Origin: Escherichia coli
Lineage (GTDB): Bacteria > Pseudomonadota > Gammaproteobacteria > Enterobacterales > Enterobacteriaceae
Assembly: GCF_024700885.2 (NCBI RefSeq)
Contig: NZ_CP117016.1
Strand: one strand, 5' to 3'
Length of the DNA stretch: 64,000 nt
Shown here: positions 272-13,238 of the stretch, one piece after another
How the letters are laid out: each line of letters opens with the position of its first letter
Numbering within the stretch: position 1 is the stretch's first letter
The notes under the pieces: generated by a model
The model's input: the letters and a program-made list of their open reading frames with translations, nothing else
What the model was told of the DNA's origin: nothing
The model's database searches: none
Translations under genes and position numbers: made by a program

Positions 272-703
272 CTAACCAGGTGTTTGCTGTTGTTCAATGT
301 ATTGACGGATGGCGGATATTGGCGCACCTCCGCAGCTACTGGCAAAATAGCCAGGACTCCACAAAACGCCTTTGTAGTAATACCTGACTGCAATATCTGG
401 TCGATCTCGTCGCAGTAACCTACTCGATACGCCTTTGAGGCTGTTTACCAGACTGGATATCGCCAGTTTGGGAGGATAGTTAATTAACAAATGGACGTGA
501 TCTGGTTCGCCATCCATTTCAACCAGTTCAGCTTCAAAATCAGCACATACCTTTGAAAAGTAAGTGCGTAGTTTTTCTTTCGCGTCATGGTCAAAAATCT
601 GGCGTCGGTATTTGGTGACAAAGACCAGGTGAACATGCATCAGGAAAACACAATGCTTTCCACGCCGGATATCGGTTTCTTTTTTCACAGACCAAAGTAT
701 CAT
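272..703 (-). CDS. tnpA: IS200-like Y1 (HUH) transposase TnpA
   Basis: 143-aa ORF with HVH motif (DHVHLLINYPP), KYRR motif and C-terminal catalytic-type Tyr (IRQYIEQQ); size typical of IS200 TnpA. Confidence 0.85.
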   Translation of the reverse strand: MILWSVKKETDIRRGKHCVFLMHVHLVFVTKYRRQIFDHDAKEKLRTYFSKVCADFEAELVEMDGEPDHVHLLINYPPKLAISSLVNSLKGVSSRLLRRDRPDIAVRYYYKGVLWSPGYFASSCGGAPISAIRQYIEQQQTPG

Positions 704-710
704 TTGACCT

Positions 711-1919
711 GTGAAACGATTACAGGCATTTAAATTCCAGTTAAGACCAGGTGGTCAACAGGAGTGTGAAATGAGGCGCTTCGCAGGCGCATGTCGTTTC
801 GTTTTCAATCGTGCTCTGGCGCTTCAGAATGAGAATCATGAGGCCGGTAATAAATACATCCCTTACGGGAAAATGGCTTCCTGGTTGGTTGAGTGGAAAA
901 ATGCCACTGAAACGCAATGGCTTAAAGATTCTCCCTCACAGCCATTGCAACAGTCACTGAAAGACCTTGAGCGGGCTTACAAAAACTTCTTCCGGAAGCG
1001 GGCTGCTTTTCCCCGATTCAAAAAGCGGGGACAGAATGATGCATTCCGCTACCCGCAGGGCGTTAAGCTCGATCAGGAAAACAGCCGTATTTTTCTGCCG
1101 AAACTTGGCTGGATGCGCTACCGGAACAGCCGTCAGGTCACGGGTGTTGTAAAAAATGTCACTGTCAGCCAGTCCTGCGGTAAGTGGTACATCAGTATTC
1201 AGACAGAAAGTGAAGTATCAACTCCGGATCACCCTTCAGCATCAATGGTCGGGCTGGATGCTGGCGTGGCTAAACTCGCCACGCTGTCAGATGGCACAGT
1301 CTTTGAGCCTGTAAACAGTTTTCAGAAAAACCAGAAGACGCTGGCGAGACTTCAGCGACAGTTAAGCCGCAAGGTCAAATTCAGCAACAACTGGCAGAAG
1401 CAGAAACGCAAAATACAGCGACTGCATTCCTGTATCGCAAATATCCGCAGGGACTACCTTCACAAAGTCACAACGACCGTCAGCAAAAACCACGCAATGA
1501 TAGTCATTGAGGATTTGAAGGTCAGCAACATGTCAAAGTCAGCAGCGGGTACGGTCAGCCAGCCGGGGCGCAATGTCCGGGCAAAATCAGGTTTAAACCG
1601 TTCGATACTGGATCAGGGCTGGTATGAAATGCGCCGCCAGCTTGAGTACAAGCAGCTCTGGCGTGGCGGTCAGGTGCTTGCTGTTCCGCCAGCGTACACA
1701 AGCCAGCGTTGCGCGTGCTGTGGTCATACAGCGAAAGAAAATCGCCTGTCACAAAGTAAATTCAGATGCCAGGCATGTGGATATACAGCGAACGCTGATG
1801 TAAATGGCGCTCGTAACATTTTAGCGGCGGGGCACGCCGTTCTTGCCTGTGGAGAGATGGTGCAGTCAGGCCGCTCGTTGAAGCAGGAACCCACCGAAAT
1901 GATTCAGGCGACAGCCTGA
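711..1919 (+). CDS. tnpB: TnpB (OrfB) RNA-guided endonuclease homolog, IS605/IS1341 type
   Basis: 402-aa ORF with RuvC-I (GLDAGV), RuvC-II (IVIEDLKV), Cys-rich zinc finger (CACCGH...CQACGY) and RuvC-III ([10 protein letters not shown]) motifs, all apparently intact. Confidence 0.9.
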
Positions 1920-3838: not shown

Positions 3839-5251
3839 ATGGTAGATCAGGTAAAAGTCGTTGCCGATGATCAGGCTCCGGCTGAACAGTCGCTACGGCG
3901 CAATCTCACAAACCGACATATTCAGCTTATTGCCATTGGCGGTGCCATTGGTACGGGGTTGTTTATGGGGTCCGGCAAAACGATTAGCCTTGCCGGGCCG
4001 TCGATCATTTTCGTTTATATGATCATCGGTTTTATGCTCTTTTTCGTGATGCGGGCAATGGGGGAATTGCTGCTTTCGAATCTGGAATACAAATCTTTTA
4101 GTGACTTCGCTTCCGATTTACTCGGGCCGTGGGCAGGATATTTCACCGGCTGGACTTACTGGTTCTGCTGGGTTGTAACCGGTATGGCAGACGTGGTGGC
4201 GATCACGGCTTATGCTCAGTTCTGGTTCCCCGAGCTCTCCGACTGGGTCGCCTCGCTGGCGGTGATAGTGCTGCTGCTGACGCTCAACCTCGCCACCGTG
4301 AAAATGTTCGGTGAGATGGAGTTCTGGTTTGCGATGATCAAAATCGTCGCCATTGTGTCGCTGATTGTCGTCGGCCTGGTCATGGTGGCGATGCACTTTC
4401 AGTCACCGACCGGTGTGGAAGCGTCATTCGCGCATTTGTGGAATGATGGCGGCTGGTTCCCGAAAGGTTTAAGTGGCTTCTTTGCCGGATTCCAGATAGC
4501 GGTTTTCGCTTTCGTAGGGATTGAGCTGGTAGGTACAACAGCTGCGGAAACCAAAGATCCAGAGAAATCACTGCCACGCGCGATTAACTCCATTCCGATC
4601 CGTATCATTATGTTCTACGTCTTCGCGCTGATTGTGATTATGTCCGTGACGCCGTGGAGTTCGGTAGTCCCGGAGAAAAGCCCGTTCGTTGAACTGTTCG
4701 TGTTGGTAGGTTTGCCTGCGGCTGCCAGCGTGATCAACTTTGTGGTGCTGACCTCTGCGGCGTCTTCCGCTAACAGCGGTGTCTTCTCTACCAGCCGTAT
4801 GCTGTTTGGTCTGGCGCAGGAAGGTGTGGCACCGAAAGCGTTCGCTAAACTCTCTAAGCGCGCAGTACCCGCGAAAGGGCTGACCTTCTCTTGTATCTGT
4901 CTGCTCGGCGGCGTGGTGATGTTGTATGTGAATCCCAGCGTGATTGGCGCGTTCACGATGATTACAACCGTTTCCGCGATTCTGTTTATGTTCGTCTGGA
5001 CGATTATCCTTTGCTCGTACCTGGTGTATCGCAAACAGCGTCCGCACCTGCATGAGAAATCAATCTACAAGATGCCGCTCGGCAAGCTGATGTGCTGGGT
5101 ATGTATGGCATTCTTTGTGTTCGTGGTCGTGCTGCTGACACTGGAAGATGATACCCGCCAGGCGCTGCTGGTTACCCCGCTGTGGTTTATCGCTCTGGGG
5201 CTGGGCTGGTTGTTTATTGGTAAGAAGCGGGCTGCTGAACTGCGGAAATAA
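3839..5251 (+). CDS. cycA: D-serine/D-alanine/glycine APC-family transporter CycA
   Basis: 470-aa polytopic membrane ORF recognised as CycA. Confidence 0.95.
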   Translation: MVDQVKVVADDQAPAEQSLRRNLTNRHIQLIAIGGAIGTGLFMGSGKTISLAGPSIIFVYMIIGFMLFFVMRAMGELLLSNLEYKSFSDFASDLLGPWAGYFTGWTYWFCWVVTGMADVVAITAYAQFWFPELSDWVASLAVIVLLLTLNLATVKMFGEMEFWFAMIKIVAIVSLIVVGLVMVAMHFQSPTGVEASFAHLWNDGGWFPKGLSGFFAGFQIAVFAFVGIELVGTTAAETKDPEKSLPRAINSIPIRIIMFYVFALIVIMSVTPWSSVVPEKSPFVELFVLVGLPAAASVINFVVLTSAASSANSGVFSTSRMLFGLAQEGVAPKAFAKLSKRAVPAKGLTFSCICLLGGVVMLYVNPSVIGAFTMITTVSAILFMFVWTIILCSYLVYRKQRPHLHEKSIYKMPLGKLMCWVCMAFFVFVVVLLTLEDDTRQALLVTPLWFIALGLGWLFIGKKRAAELRK

Positions 5252-5295
5252 CCGCATTATCATGCTGGATGGCGCAATGCCATCCAGCTTTTAGA

Positions 5296-5958
5296 TCACT
5301 CACCCGCCAGTGCGCGCGGGAACAGCACATTATTTTCCAGGCTGATGTGCTCCATCAGGTCATCAATCAGTTCATTAATGCCGTTATACATCGCTTTCCA
5401 GGTGGTGCAGGCTTCCGGCGGCGGTGTGACGTTATTGGTAGTGTGTTTGATTACTTCCAGCAGTTCACCCGCTTCATCGTGCTCGCTTTCCATTACGCTG
5501 ATTGGCCCCATAGCCTGGCTGCCCATGCCTTGTTTGATCATCGGGAAGAGGATCTGCTCTTCTTTCATCATGTGGCTGGAAAGCTCTTCATGCAGCATAG
5601 TCAGGTATTTTGTCAGCCCTTTTGGCACGCTCGGTTTGTCGGCGTGAACGCGCTCGACTTTAGTCGCTTGCAGGATCAGCTCCGGCAGTTGCTCGCGGTG
5701 ACGATCGTGGTAGCGCACGATGATATGGTCGATGATTTCTGCCAGCGGGGCGCTACGCCAGTCTTTCTCAATCGGTTGTTCAGCAAGCTTTGCCAGCTCA
5801 GCTTCAATGACCTCAACATCCAGTTCTTTACGTGCCGCCGCACGCGCCAGCGTTTGCTTACCGCCGCAGCAGTAATCCATATCATATTTACGAAACAGAG
5901 CTGAAGCGCGAGGAATAGAGAGCGCCAGTTCACCTAAAGGTTGGTCGCGATAAGCCAT
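5296..5958 (-). CDS. ytfE: Iron-sulfur cluster repair di-iron protein YtfE (RIC)
   Basis: 220-aa ORF recognised as YtfE, with an NsrR-type operator immediately upstream. Confidence 0.95.
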
Positions 5959-10541: not shown

Positions 10542-10730
10542 CAGGGACATCCTTTTATCATCGGGAATACGAAAGAAAAGGGAGAATAAACGTCTTACTT
10601 ATAGAACAGTGAAGAATGCCACAATTTTACGCTTTGAAAATGATGACACTATCACAGTTGGCGCATTCATTAACGATAGGGTATAAGTAAAACAATAAGT
10701 TAACACCGCTCACAGAGACGAGGTGGAGAA

Positions 10731-11471
10731 ATGTTAGATCAAGTATGCCAGCTTGCACGGAATGCAGGCGATGCCATTATGCAGGTCTACGACGGGACGA
10801 AACCGATGGACGTCGTCAGCAAAGCGGACAATTCTCCGGTAACGGCAGCGGATATTGCCGCACACACCGTTATCATGGACGGTTTACGTACGCTGACACC
10901 GGATATTCCGGTCCTTTCTGAAGAAGATCCTCCCGGTTGGGAAGTCCGTCAGCACTGGCAGCGTTACTGGCTGGTAGATCCGCTGGATGGTACTAAAGAG
11001 TTTATTAAACGTAATGGCGAATTTACCGTTAACATTGCGCTCATCGACCACGGCAAACCGATTTTAGGTGTGGTGTATGCGCCGGTAATGAACGTAATGT
11101 ACAGCGCGGCAGAAGGCAAAGCGTGGAAAGAAGAGTGCGGCGTGCGCAAGCAGATTCAGGTCCGTGATGCGCGCCCGCCGCTGGTGGTTATCAGCCGTTC
11201 CCATGCAGATGCGGAGCTGAAAGAGTATCTGCAACAGCTTGGCGAACATCAGACCACGTCCATCGGCTCTTCGCTGAAATTCTGCCTGGTGGCGGAAGGA
11301 CAGGCGCAGCTGTACCCGCGCTTCGGACCAACGAATATTTGGGACACCGCCGCTGGACATGCTGTGGCCGCAGCTGCCGGAGCGCACGTTCACGACTGGC
11401 AGGGTAAACCGCTGGATTACACTCCGCGCGAGTTGTTCCTGAATCCGGGGTTCAGAGTGTCTATTTACTAA
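10731..11471 (+). CDS. cysQ: 3'(2'),5'-bisphosphate nucleotidase CysQ
   Basis: 246-aa ORF with inositol-monophosphatase family motifs (WLVDPLDGT). Confidence 0.95.
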
Positions 11472-11682
11472 ATTCAGATGGCAGAAACAGTGTATTTCCT
11501 GATTCTGCCATCCTGATTTCTCCCAACCTAAAAAGTTATAAATAAAAAGAGATTGTATTTAAAGTGCAAAAGTTCAATTGCTAATAAGTTATATTTTAAT
11601 AATGAGCGTTTTTTGATAGTTTACTTCTATAATGAGATATTTAATGGCGACATAAAATAACCAAATAAAATAAGGTAGCCAT

Positions 11683-12594
11683 ATGTTACCCAGGATCAGA
11701 CACAATAATTTTATTGGTGCGGTGGAGTTATTCGTAAAATCATCGCATACAAAAACACATTCAAACAATTTTTTTAACAATATCCAGCATGCATTTAATA
11801 AAAAAGATTGGATTTCAAATTATGATAGCCTGTTAACTTTGAGGGAGTTCTTTCGTTGCGCAACTCAGATTGATAAAAATAGTTATCAGGTACTTTCATC
11901 AAAAAATGAAACTGTTAACGCCATGGATAAGTTTCTTATCAGTTTCAGCCTTAAAGATAACGGTGCCGAATATATAATGACATTGCGAGGCAGTGGATTT
12001 GAATACGAAGAAATTCCCATAACAATAAATGAGTATAACTCATTCATGGATTTCAAAAACCGCGAGTTTCCGTTAGAACAAAACAGAAGATTGTATGCCT
12101 GGGATATTCTGCAGAAAAAACAGTCTGACATACCGGAAAGGATTAAAGGTTATATTCGCCAGGCGTTTGGTGACGTGTCTTTAGGTTATGCTGTATTGGA
12201 TGATATAGTAAGTAAATTAAAACGGGGTAAATTTGACCCCCAAATTCCAGGAGGTGGAATTAAAGAATGCGATGGATGGTATATTTACGAAAAAATAATT
12301 GATGATAATTTTGCCATAGTCATAGAATCTTTGGGCTTTGCGCTTAAAATCTATGGAGGGGATGAACGTTTTCGTAATGGTTCCTCTGTTGTTTTGGAGG
12401 ATGAAGATTACTCTCTTATTTATAATTTTCTGGTTAATGCAGGTTGCCAACAAGTCGAATTAGCCGAACAAGTGGATGCGATAGTAAGTGCGAATCTGGC
12501 CGCAGATAGTGATATTACCGAAGAAAAGATTTGCGAGAAATATAAATCGACCATTGAGGCGTTTAAAAAAAAGCAACTAGCGTTACCAGTATGA
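11683..12594 (+). CDS. ytfI: Uncharacterised protein YtfI (AT-rich gene)
   Basis: 303-aa ORF in a markedly AT-rich segment, recognised as the ytfI product; function unknown. Confidence 0.65.
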   Translation: MLPRIRHNNFIGAVELFVKSSHTKTHSNNFFNNIQHAFNKKDWISNYDSLLTLREFFRCATQIDKNSYQVLSSKNETVNAMDKFLISFSLKDNGAEYIMTLRGSGFEYEEIPITINEYNSFMDFKNREFPLEQNRRLYAWDILQKKQSDIPERIKGYIRQAFGDVSLGYAVLDDIVSKLKRGKFDPQIPGGGIKECDGWYIYEKIIDDNFAIVIESLGFALKIYGGDERFRNGSSVVLEDEDYSLIYNFLVNAGCQQVELAEQVDAIVSANLAADSDITEEKICEKYKSTIEAFKKKQLALPV

Positions 12595-12683
12595 GTTCGG
12601 CGTAAGAACTCAGAGGCTTAATTCCCCTATCCCATAGATAACGATAGGGGAAAATTATTTTTGCAGAATTTATGTTATTGCCA

Positions 12684-13238
12684 TTATTTGAGCAACTTTT
12701 GCAGCAGGCCCATCACTTGCTGTACCTCTTCCGGTGTGAGCGCCCCGTCTTTGGCCCATTGCACGCGACCGTCTTTATCCAGCACCACTACAGCGGAACT
12801 TTCTTCATCCAGCTGCCAGGCACCGCGCGCGACGCCATTGCTATCGACAATAAACTGCGACCAGGGATAAAGCTTTTTATTACTCTCCAGACTGCTGCGC
12901 ACAAACATCCCTGAACCCGGAATCGCGTCGTCGGTGTTAACAATGGTGGTGGTCTGGTAACGATCGTGCGGTAACTTTGCTGATTTAATCGCTTCAATCA
13001 GCGTCGCGTTTTTCTCTTTTGCAGAGGTGCGACCAGCAATATGTTGCAGTACTCGCACTTTTCCCACTAACTGCGCGCTGTTCCAGGTTTTGTAGCTAAA
13101 CTGATCTTTATCAAGCACCAACTCGCCCCGATCGGTAATGCCAATCGGCGGCACTCGCTGACCGGTTTCGAACTGATGTGCGGAAGCCATCATCGGCAAC
13201 AGCAGGCAGGTGAGTGCCAGAATCTTGCGTAGGGTCAT
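12684..13238 (-). CDS. ytfJ: Periplasmic protein YtfJ (signal peptide, thioredoxin-like fold family)
   Basis: 184-aa ORF with N-terminal signal peptide, recognised as YtfJ. Confidence 0.85.
   Translation of the reverse strand: MTLRKILALTCLLLPMMASAHQFETGQRVPPIGITDRGELVLDKDQFSYKTWNSAQLVGKVRVLQHIAGRTSAKEKNATLIEAIKSAKLPHDRYQTTTIVNTDDAIPGSGMFVRSSLESNKKLYPWSQFIVDSNGVARGAWQLDEESSAVVVLDKDGRVQWAKDGALTPEEVQQVMGLLQKLLK

Follow-up and report, generated by a model that had tools for sequence, protein, structure and literature searches.

ytfI as a probable ancient foreign gene inserted in the cysQ/ytfJ overlap of Escherichia coli

Between the core genes cysQ and ytfJ of this Escherichia coli chromosome lies ytfI, a gene of unusually low GC content. 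The locus raises the question of where this DNA came from, how long it has been there and what it encodes. We analyzed it within a window of 64,000 nucleotides, which is the whole stretch of DNA under study. From 11300 to 12800, the window has 100% DNA identity to E. coli strain 1190 and 96.7% to K-12, where the gene is annotated as ytfI. The K-12 gene is b4215 (UniProt P39317). The features of the locus are as follows.

10731..11471, + strand: cysQ, 3'(2'),5'-bisphosphate nucleotidase, the left core gene (ORF; annotation in strain 1190, whose sequence is identical here; dN/dS 0.01-0.045)
11461..11471, no strand: left copy CTATTTACTAA of the ancestral 11-bp cysQ/ytfJ overlap (CTATTTATTGA/TAA), with the cysQ stop codon (junction comparison with empty-site E. 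coli and outgroups)
11472..12683, no strand: inserted AT-rich block of about 1.21 kb, GC about 0.35, not in the ancestral site (presence/absence across genomes)
11474..11516, + strand: strong stem-loop directly 3' of the cysQ stop codon (-21.4 kcal/mol, z -6.6; core invariant in 4/4 alleles)
11517..11682, + strand: conserved AT-rich region upstream of ytfI, GC about 0.28 (83% identity to the most divergent allele)
11683..12594, + strand: ytfI coding sequence, 303 aa (ORF; orphan family)
11683..12162, + strand: N-terminal module, codons 1-160, conserved (dN/dS 0.13-0.15)
12163..12591, + strand: C-terminal module, codons 161-303, fast-evolving (dN/dS 0.32-0.71)
12622..12663, no strand: conserved GC-rich hairpin with 10-bp perfect arms, then AAAATTATTTTT (T-run) (conservation across alleles)
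12684..12691, no strand: right copy TTATTT-GA of the ancestral overlap, with a 3-bp deletion and the ytfJ stop codon (junction comparison)
12684..13238, - strand: ytfJ, periplasmic protein of the YtfJ_HI0045 family, the right core gene, GC 0.524 (ORF; annotation)

Composition and H-NS binding of the block

The first-pass annotation had described a sharply AT-rich block between cysQ and ytfJ, with an abrupt drop in GC relative to its flanks and a long AT-rich region upstream of ytfI. All of this is real. The GC content of positions 11472-12660 is 0.347 compared to 0.507 for the whole window (z -3.45 among all 1189-bp windows, 1.6% of which are equally low). In a 300-bp sliding profile, GC steps from 0.56 at 11200-11499 to 0.28 at 11500-11799, stays at 0.31-0.38 until about 12700 and is 0.48-0.54 again inside ytfJ. 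The 211-bp spacer 5' of ytfI (11472-11682) has a GC content of 0.28, and ytfI itself 0.359, compared to 0.549 for its left neighbor cysQ and 0.524 for ytfJ on its right. The right edge of the block is the ytfJ stop codon at 12684, slightly past the 12660 given initially.

Codon usage departs from that of the neighboring genes as clearly as GC content does. GC3 is 0.327 in ytfI and 0.569±0.077 in the 52 other genes of the region (z -3.2; second lowest of 53). The GC contents of codon positions 1, 2 and 3 are 0.44, 0.31 and 0.33 in ytfI, compared to 0.57-0.65, 0.37-0.42 and 0.56-0.59 in cpdB, cysQ and ytfJ. Per thousand codons, ytfI has 29.8 ATA, 9.9 AGA, 9.9 AGG and 13 CTG, while the other genes have 4.0, 1.7, 0.9 and 54. 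The three rare codons are thus 6-10x over-represented and CTG is 4x under-represented. GC3 is 0.30-0.33 in all four of the ytfI alleles compared, so ytfI has kept its low GC content instead of approaching that of the host.

The annotation had also associated the block with H-NS, and for the K-12 allele such binding has already been reported. Higashi et al. 2016 (PMC4720273) gave ytfI as an example of a strain-specific inserted segment that is in K-12 and not in SE11 or SE15. K-12 ytfI is bound by H-NS in their ChAP-seq data, and the H-NS signal on cpdB, cysQ, ytfJ and ytfK, onto which binding spreads from ytfI, depends on the ytfI segment (PMC4720273, S10 Fig and S6 Table). These data belong to the K-12 allele (96.7% DNA identity) and not to the window allele. 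Since binding is what has been documented, we infer rather than observe transcriptional silencing of ytfI. The case matches the H-NS-bound xenogeneic genes of E. coli and Salmonella, K-12 ytfI among them (PMC4720273), in gene, locus, AT-richness and strain variability. A scan for the 10-bp high-affinity H-NS motif showed no enrichment, with 68 matches in the window compared to 66 expected; two of the matches were in the block. In the literature on ChIP, the ytfI locus is also listed as a sigma-32 site with a high score, which is disputed, and among the regions prone to false positives. Inspection of the sequence by eye gave no convincing match to a sigma-32 promoter.

The window allele differs from the published K-12 gene (PMC4720273) in its length. 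It encodes 303 aa and stops earlier, with a TGA where K-12 continues for nine codons (LVRRKNSET), so that it is nine residues shorter than the 312-aa K-12 protein, to which it has 95% protein identity. A total of 468 genomes carry the 303-aa allele at ≥99% identity. In RefSeq, the name "protein YtfI" is given to the 312-aa form, and the 303-aa form is called only "hypothetical protein".

Taken with the comparisons below, our favored reading, which we hold with good confidence, is that the block is ancient foreign DNA carrying a single gene, that it sits in the ancestral cysQ/ytfJ overlap and is bound by H-NS, and that ytfI is a real orphan gene.

The YtfI protein and other cargo at the junction

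YtfI is soluble and acidic (pI 5.3), with no transmembrane or hydrophobic span. Its predicted secondary structure consists of helices at residues 10-58, a five-strand beta-meander at 60-114, helices at 115-181 and then a second beta/alpha unit. The first-pass annotation had found no recognizable motif in the 303-aa protein, and Pfam and NCBIfam agree, with no family at E<=1. Searches by sequence, profile and structure likewise gave no confident match to the fold of a housekeeping family: YtfI has no PDB match and no confident fold match, and AlphaFold2 gave no confident model (pLDDT 39-49). No homologue outside Escherichia/Shigella was found in about 15 billion proteins, which places YtfI among the remaining K-12 proteins that have no family, fold or relative in a set of that size. 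An exhaustive HMMER search (1.84 billion representatives) and a profile scan (5.8 billion clusters) returned only YtfI, plus one repeat-driven match. This match (P0036, HMMER E 4.6e-4) is to a Gram-positive surface protein of 1,100 aa with Ig repeats. Its score adds up over five repeats of a "DxDYxLxY" motif, and the match was put down to chance.

Three further candidates were rejected. A T4 gp32-like ssDNA-binding protein was suggested by a phmmer match to the gp32 core (E 0.04), but a profile of seven alleles had no PDB match at E<=10, and the match is attributed to chance. LisH (PF08513) reached at best 20.0 bits, over 14 residues of the 77% allele, which is below the gathering threshold of 21.6 bits; it was counted at E<=10 in 5/7 alleles, and a direct scan of the window allele and of the K-12-type allele (P0001) gave no match. 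An internal duplication of the two beta/alpha units was also considered, and its Smith-Waterman score was below the shuffle mean. The best explanation of the protein's features is that YtfI would be a soluble cytoplasmic alpha/beta protein, restricted to Escherichia and other than a housekeeping enzyme. In published screens, YtfI or ytfI appears for HOCl resistance on overexpression, on a lactoferricin B chip and in a stress-network list.

The cysQ/ytfJ junction holds different cargo in other lineages and is therefore an insertion hot spot. In E. albertii, the insert at this junction measures 1,513 bp and has a GC content of 0.33 and no DNA similarity to the ytfI block. In strain NBRC 107761 (L017 4792-5949), this insert encodes, on the opposite strand, a 385-aa pentapeptide-repeat protein (PF00805, E 7.6e-12), which may resemble the pentapeptide-repeat type III effectors. 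Citrobacter youngae ATCC 29220 (L044 4676-6631) has a 2.1-kb insert at the same junction that encodes a radical SAM/SPASM enzyme and a membrane protein with a Ser/Gly/Cys-rich tail; the two may form a peptide-modification pair. Two Kluyvera species (L060 and L066, about 4556-5608) have a 0.9-kb insert with a gene for an S11 D-Ala-D-Ala carboxypeptidase-like peptidase. In its lineage-varying cargo, the junction is like the small genomic islets at convergent-gene junctions and the hot spots of the E. coli pangenome. In contrast to such islets, the ytfI insert has no integrase, tRNA, IS or recognizable att site, and it is a single gene that has been in place long enough for alleles to reach 70% identity.

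Could YtfI have a role in conflict, either as an anti-phage or abortive-infection system that consists of one gene, or as, for example, an orphan immunity protein or a secreted effector? The gene is accessory and variable, the junction that it occupies is an insertion hot spot, a conserved N-terminal module is joined to a fast C-terminal one, and the E. albertii pentapeptide-repeat protein lies at the same junction. In addition, all seven alleles examined give a weak PADLOC match to Cas6b over 41 residues (112-152; E 1e-3 to 2.6e-4), with no CRISPR context. However, no defense, immunity or effector family is significant. PADLOC-DB v2 yielded no significant full-length defense model, and PHROGs yielded only a short, marginal match to phrog_3250 (E 0.002). 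The very long stay at one locus is unlike typical defense cargo, which turns over quickly, the radical SAM/SPASM enzyme and the S11 peptidase are not defense-like, and the dN/dS of the C-terminal module is below 1. We regard a conflict role as rather unlikely. A bolder version is that YtfI would be a new fold found only in Escherichia and kept under H-NS control as a balanced presence/absence polymorphism since about the split of E. coli from the cryptic clades, where it would act as a single-protein conflict factor (phage defense or interbacterial) with an N-terminal effector and a C-terminal sensor. This version is unlikely. Our own guess at a role, which comes from the pattern of selection and from the gene's accessory distribution, is a tentative one: YtfI may be an accessory protein that cells can do without and express only under certain conditions, with a core that is constant and a recognition part that varies, perhaps acting in some conflict or in a niche-specific interaction.

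Polarity and age of the insertion

The distribution of the block was examined in 5,426 complete E. coli genomes, and the ytfJ locus in 80 Enterobacteriaceae species representatives (GTDB). The cysQ/ytfJ flanks are present in 5,418 of the E. coli genomes and the block in 1,602-1,622 (about 30%), a count that is raised by the K-12 derivatives and O157:H7 strains in the genome set. In the other E. coli (about 70%), the convergent cysQ and ytfJ genes overlap tail-to-tail by 11 bp with nothing between them. The gap between ytfJ and cysQ, measured end to end by tblastn, is about 0-26 bp in about 74/80 species representatives. Species with the empty site include Citrobacter, Salmonella arizonae, Klebsiella, Raoultella, Enterobacter, Kosakonia, Trabulsiella, E. 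whittamii and two further Escherichia species. The block is thus patchy among close relatives and the ancestral empty site is intact. Together with the aberrant composition, the empty junction in most species and most complete E. coli supports the horizontal acquisition that the first-pass annotation had proposed.

The junction itself gives the polarity. Outgroup YtfJ proteins have 185 aa and the C-terminus LLHKLL(N/S)K, and the E. coli empty site has exactly the same architecture. Since the two agree, it is the empty site that represents the ancestral state, and the filled site, with its AT-rich insertion, is derived. In the ancestral state, the end codons of cysQ and ytfJ share the same 11 bases, while the filled allele has this segment on either side of the insert. 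There, the CysQ C-terminus is complete and YtfJ ends with LLQKLLK and then the stop codon. The overlap CTATTTATTGA could be a target-site duplication, represented by CTATTTACTAA and TTATTT-GA; the copies are short and degenerate, and both are needed for the two stop codons. The two-sided segment looks like a short target duplication, and mechanism and selection are indistinguishable here. Other traces of a mobile element were not detected. There is no transposase or integrase gene in the block, where ytfI is the only long ORF and has no Pfam, NCBIfam or PHROG enzyme match. There is also no tRNA, IS or recognizable att site at the insertion in the window, and no long direct repeat was found in the block. 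The best terminal inverted repeat (ATGGCA..AACA, 10/12 bases) is not significant, as it is equalled by 19% of shuffles.

Another possible explanation of the patchy distribution is a deletion polymorphism, in which ytfI and its AT-rich surroundings would be ancestral to Escherichia and its relatives and would have been lost in 70% of E. coli. The ytfI alleles have diverged as much as the flanks, as expected of an old gene, and losses do occur, such as an IS1-associated deletion in ETEC1738 and the frameshifted alleles. However, the precise 11-bp overlap and the 185-aa YtfJ are found in Citrobacter, Salmonella, Klebsiella, Enterobacter and several Escherichia, and independent deletion would not rebuild this junction base for base. 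As an account of the origin, a deletion polymorphism is largely refuted, and we consider it quite improbable. Some E. coli lineages may have reverted to the empty state via recombination with an empty allele.

With insertion as the favored origin, the age of the block can be judged from its alleles. Alleles at 95, 88, 77 and 70% amino-acid identity to the window allele were found in K-12, O157:H7/O55:H7, avian and canine isolates and divergent Escherichia, and all alleles that could be placed sit between cysQ and ytfJ. Between the window and K-12 alleles, dS is 0.10 for ytfI and 0.08 for cysQ. For the 77% allele (L005), dS is 0.36 for ytfI, 0.21 for cysQ and 0.26 for cpdB, and for the 70% allele (L009), it is 0.72, 0.65 and 0.33. 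Third-position identity to L011 is 0.699 in cysQ, 0.671 in ytfI and 0.734 in ytfJ. For calibration, the dS of the flanking genes is 0.5-0.65 to E. whittamii and other cryptic-clade genomes, 0.8-0.9 to E. albertii and >1 to Citrobacter. Since alleles down to 70% identity occupy one site and differ at synonymous positions as much as the flanks do, the insertion is old. Judged by these sequence distances, the insert and its flanks would have accumulated divergence together, over about the time that separates E. coli from its cryptic sister lineages. The alternative to long co-divergence is that whole loci were swapped by homologous recombination; neither amounts to a recent acquisition by K-12.

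A recent, lineage-specific acquisition, in which ytfI would have entered K-12-like strains lately from a mobile element, as its label of a K-12-specific segment would imply, is very improbable. The absence of the block from SE11, SE15 and B2 strains (e.g., ST131, E2348/69 and 83972) and the composition of ytfI, which has not ameliorated, would suit it. These points are outweighed by the presence of ytfI in unrelated lineages at 70-95% identity, with one junction and a synonymous divergence equal to that of the flanks. Nor is there a copy on a phage, a clear plasmid record or another element: phage genomes had none, and the four plasmid matches are all in chromosome-sized records of 0.66-4.9 Mb, which are probably mislabelled, leaving no true extrachromosomal copy.

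Selection on ytfI and on the non-coding parts

The ytfI frame is intact across a dS of 0.7-0.9, and the indels are all in-frame. Overall dN/dS is 0.22-0.37. It is uneven along the gene, with 0.13-0.15 in codons 1-160, as low as in ytfJ, and 0.32-0.71 in codons 161-303. We estimate the chance of a 303-codon open frame in DNA of 36% GC, with about 7% stops per codon, at about 3e-10. On this evidence from sequence comparison, ytfI is a real protein-coding gene. A reading of the ORF as non-functional, either left over from a decaying gene or open by chance, with any selection acting on the DNA through H-NS binding or terminators, is very improbable. The missing homologue and domain, low AlphaFold confidence, many truncated alleles, poor codon usage and conserved non-coding parts would fit such a view, but they are set against the improbability of the frame, its maintenance with in-frame indels and the constraint on the first 160 codons. 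N-terminally truncated, frameshifted and IS-deleted alleles are frequent. Because such alleles and IS-mediated deletions are common, ytfI is dispensable.

The non-coding parts of the block are conserved as well. The 211-bp upstream region has 83% identity to the most divergent allele, compared to 67-73% at third codon positions there. It contains a promoter-like site at 11613-11641 (TTGATA-17-GATATT, TG-extended), and AAGG precedes the ytfI ATG. A sigma-70 promoter scan gave a site count that was not above chance. Positions 11517-11682 are predicted to be a region of H-NS nucleation and regulation, which we consider probable. The stem-loop at 11474-11516 is likely a 3' terminator or stabilizer for cysQ that was supplied by the insert, and the hairpin at 12622-12663 is probably a terminator between the convergent ytfI and ytfJ genes. 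We infer that both hairpins are terminators, which the insert supplied to genes that formerly ended inside each other. Rfam had no match inside the block.

The favored reading of an old foreign insertion can be put as a sequence of events. About 1.2 kb of AT-rich DNA would have entered exactly at the 11-bp tail-to-tail overlap of cysQ and ytfJ in an early Escherichia lineage, bringing ytfI, its own conserved upstream region and two hairpins. Both cysQ and ytfJ would have kept their stop codons because the overlap segment was duplicated. Filled and empty alleles would have coexisted since then, the filled one now being in about 30% of sequenced E. coli. H-NS would nucleate on the block because its DNA is far more AT-rich than the genome, coat ytfI and spread onto the neighboring genes, and presumably it keeps ytfI transcriptionally quiet in laboratory conditions. 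In YtfI, an N-terminal module of about 160 residues would be under strong constraint, with a C-terminal module that evolves 3-4x faster.

H-NS binding to ytfI as a strain-specific insertion was already known (PMC4720273). New here are the polarity given by the empty site, the age of the insert, purifying selection in two modules, the conserved regulatory region and terminator hairpins, the orphan status of the protein and the hot-spot nature of the junction. The locus is a clean natural case of foreign DNA that persists, with a 1.2-kb insert of GC3 about 0.3 under purifying selection while the empty allele still circulates. As the N-terminal half of YtfI is as constrained as a core gene, an experimental structure or a phenotype would be new information.

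Several observations concern mobile elements and other parts of the window. In some genomes (L009 6967-7421; L010 4146-5126), IS elements adjoin ytfI, and a DDE_Tnp_1 transposase lies directly downstream of the 70% allele. In ETEC1738 (L093 5215-5912), IS1 replaces the block beyond its first 159 bp as well as the 3' end of ytfJ. An IS200/IS605-type element occupies 272-1919 of the window, with tnpA at 272-703 (-) and an insQ/TnpB-family ORF at 711-1919 (+). In the near-identical strain 1190, this element is inserted in a gene for a TetR/AcrR-family regulator, of which only pseudogene fragments remain. Outside the ytfI locus, the window and strain 1190 (NZ_CP023386.1) differ by a 12-bp offset near ytfH and in the length of the ORF at 51516-53387, and the genes of the second half of the window have no exact match in that strain, so the window comes from a relative of strain 1190 rather than from 1190. 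The ES239 sRNA has a full-length Rfam match at 10542-10664 (+) (157 bits, E 6e-32), between cpdB and cysQ and just upstream of cysQ.

The window contains further AT-rich blocks, with 1189-bp windows down to a GC content of 0.31 near 51-53 kb and of 0.35 near 55-56 kb. The first holds a 623-aa ORF without a Pfam domain at 51516-53387 (+), which we take to be yjgL-like; the gene at its position in strain 1190 is annotated as a hypothetical protein and has 531 aa there. Like this orphan AT-rich y-gene, ytfI has a low GC content, no Pfam domain and a distribution restricted to the genus, but the two proteins have no sequence similarity in the exhaustive YtfI search. The second block holds a 407-aa DUF898 protein (yjgN) at 55742-56965 (+). 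Both blocks look like the same H-NS-type foreign DNA as ytfI.
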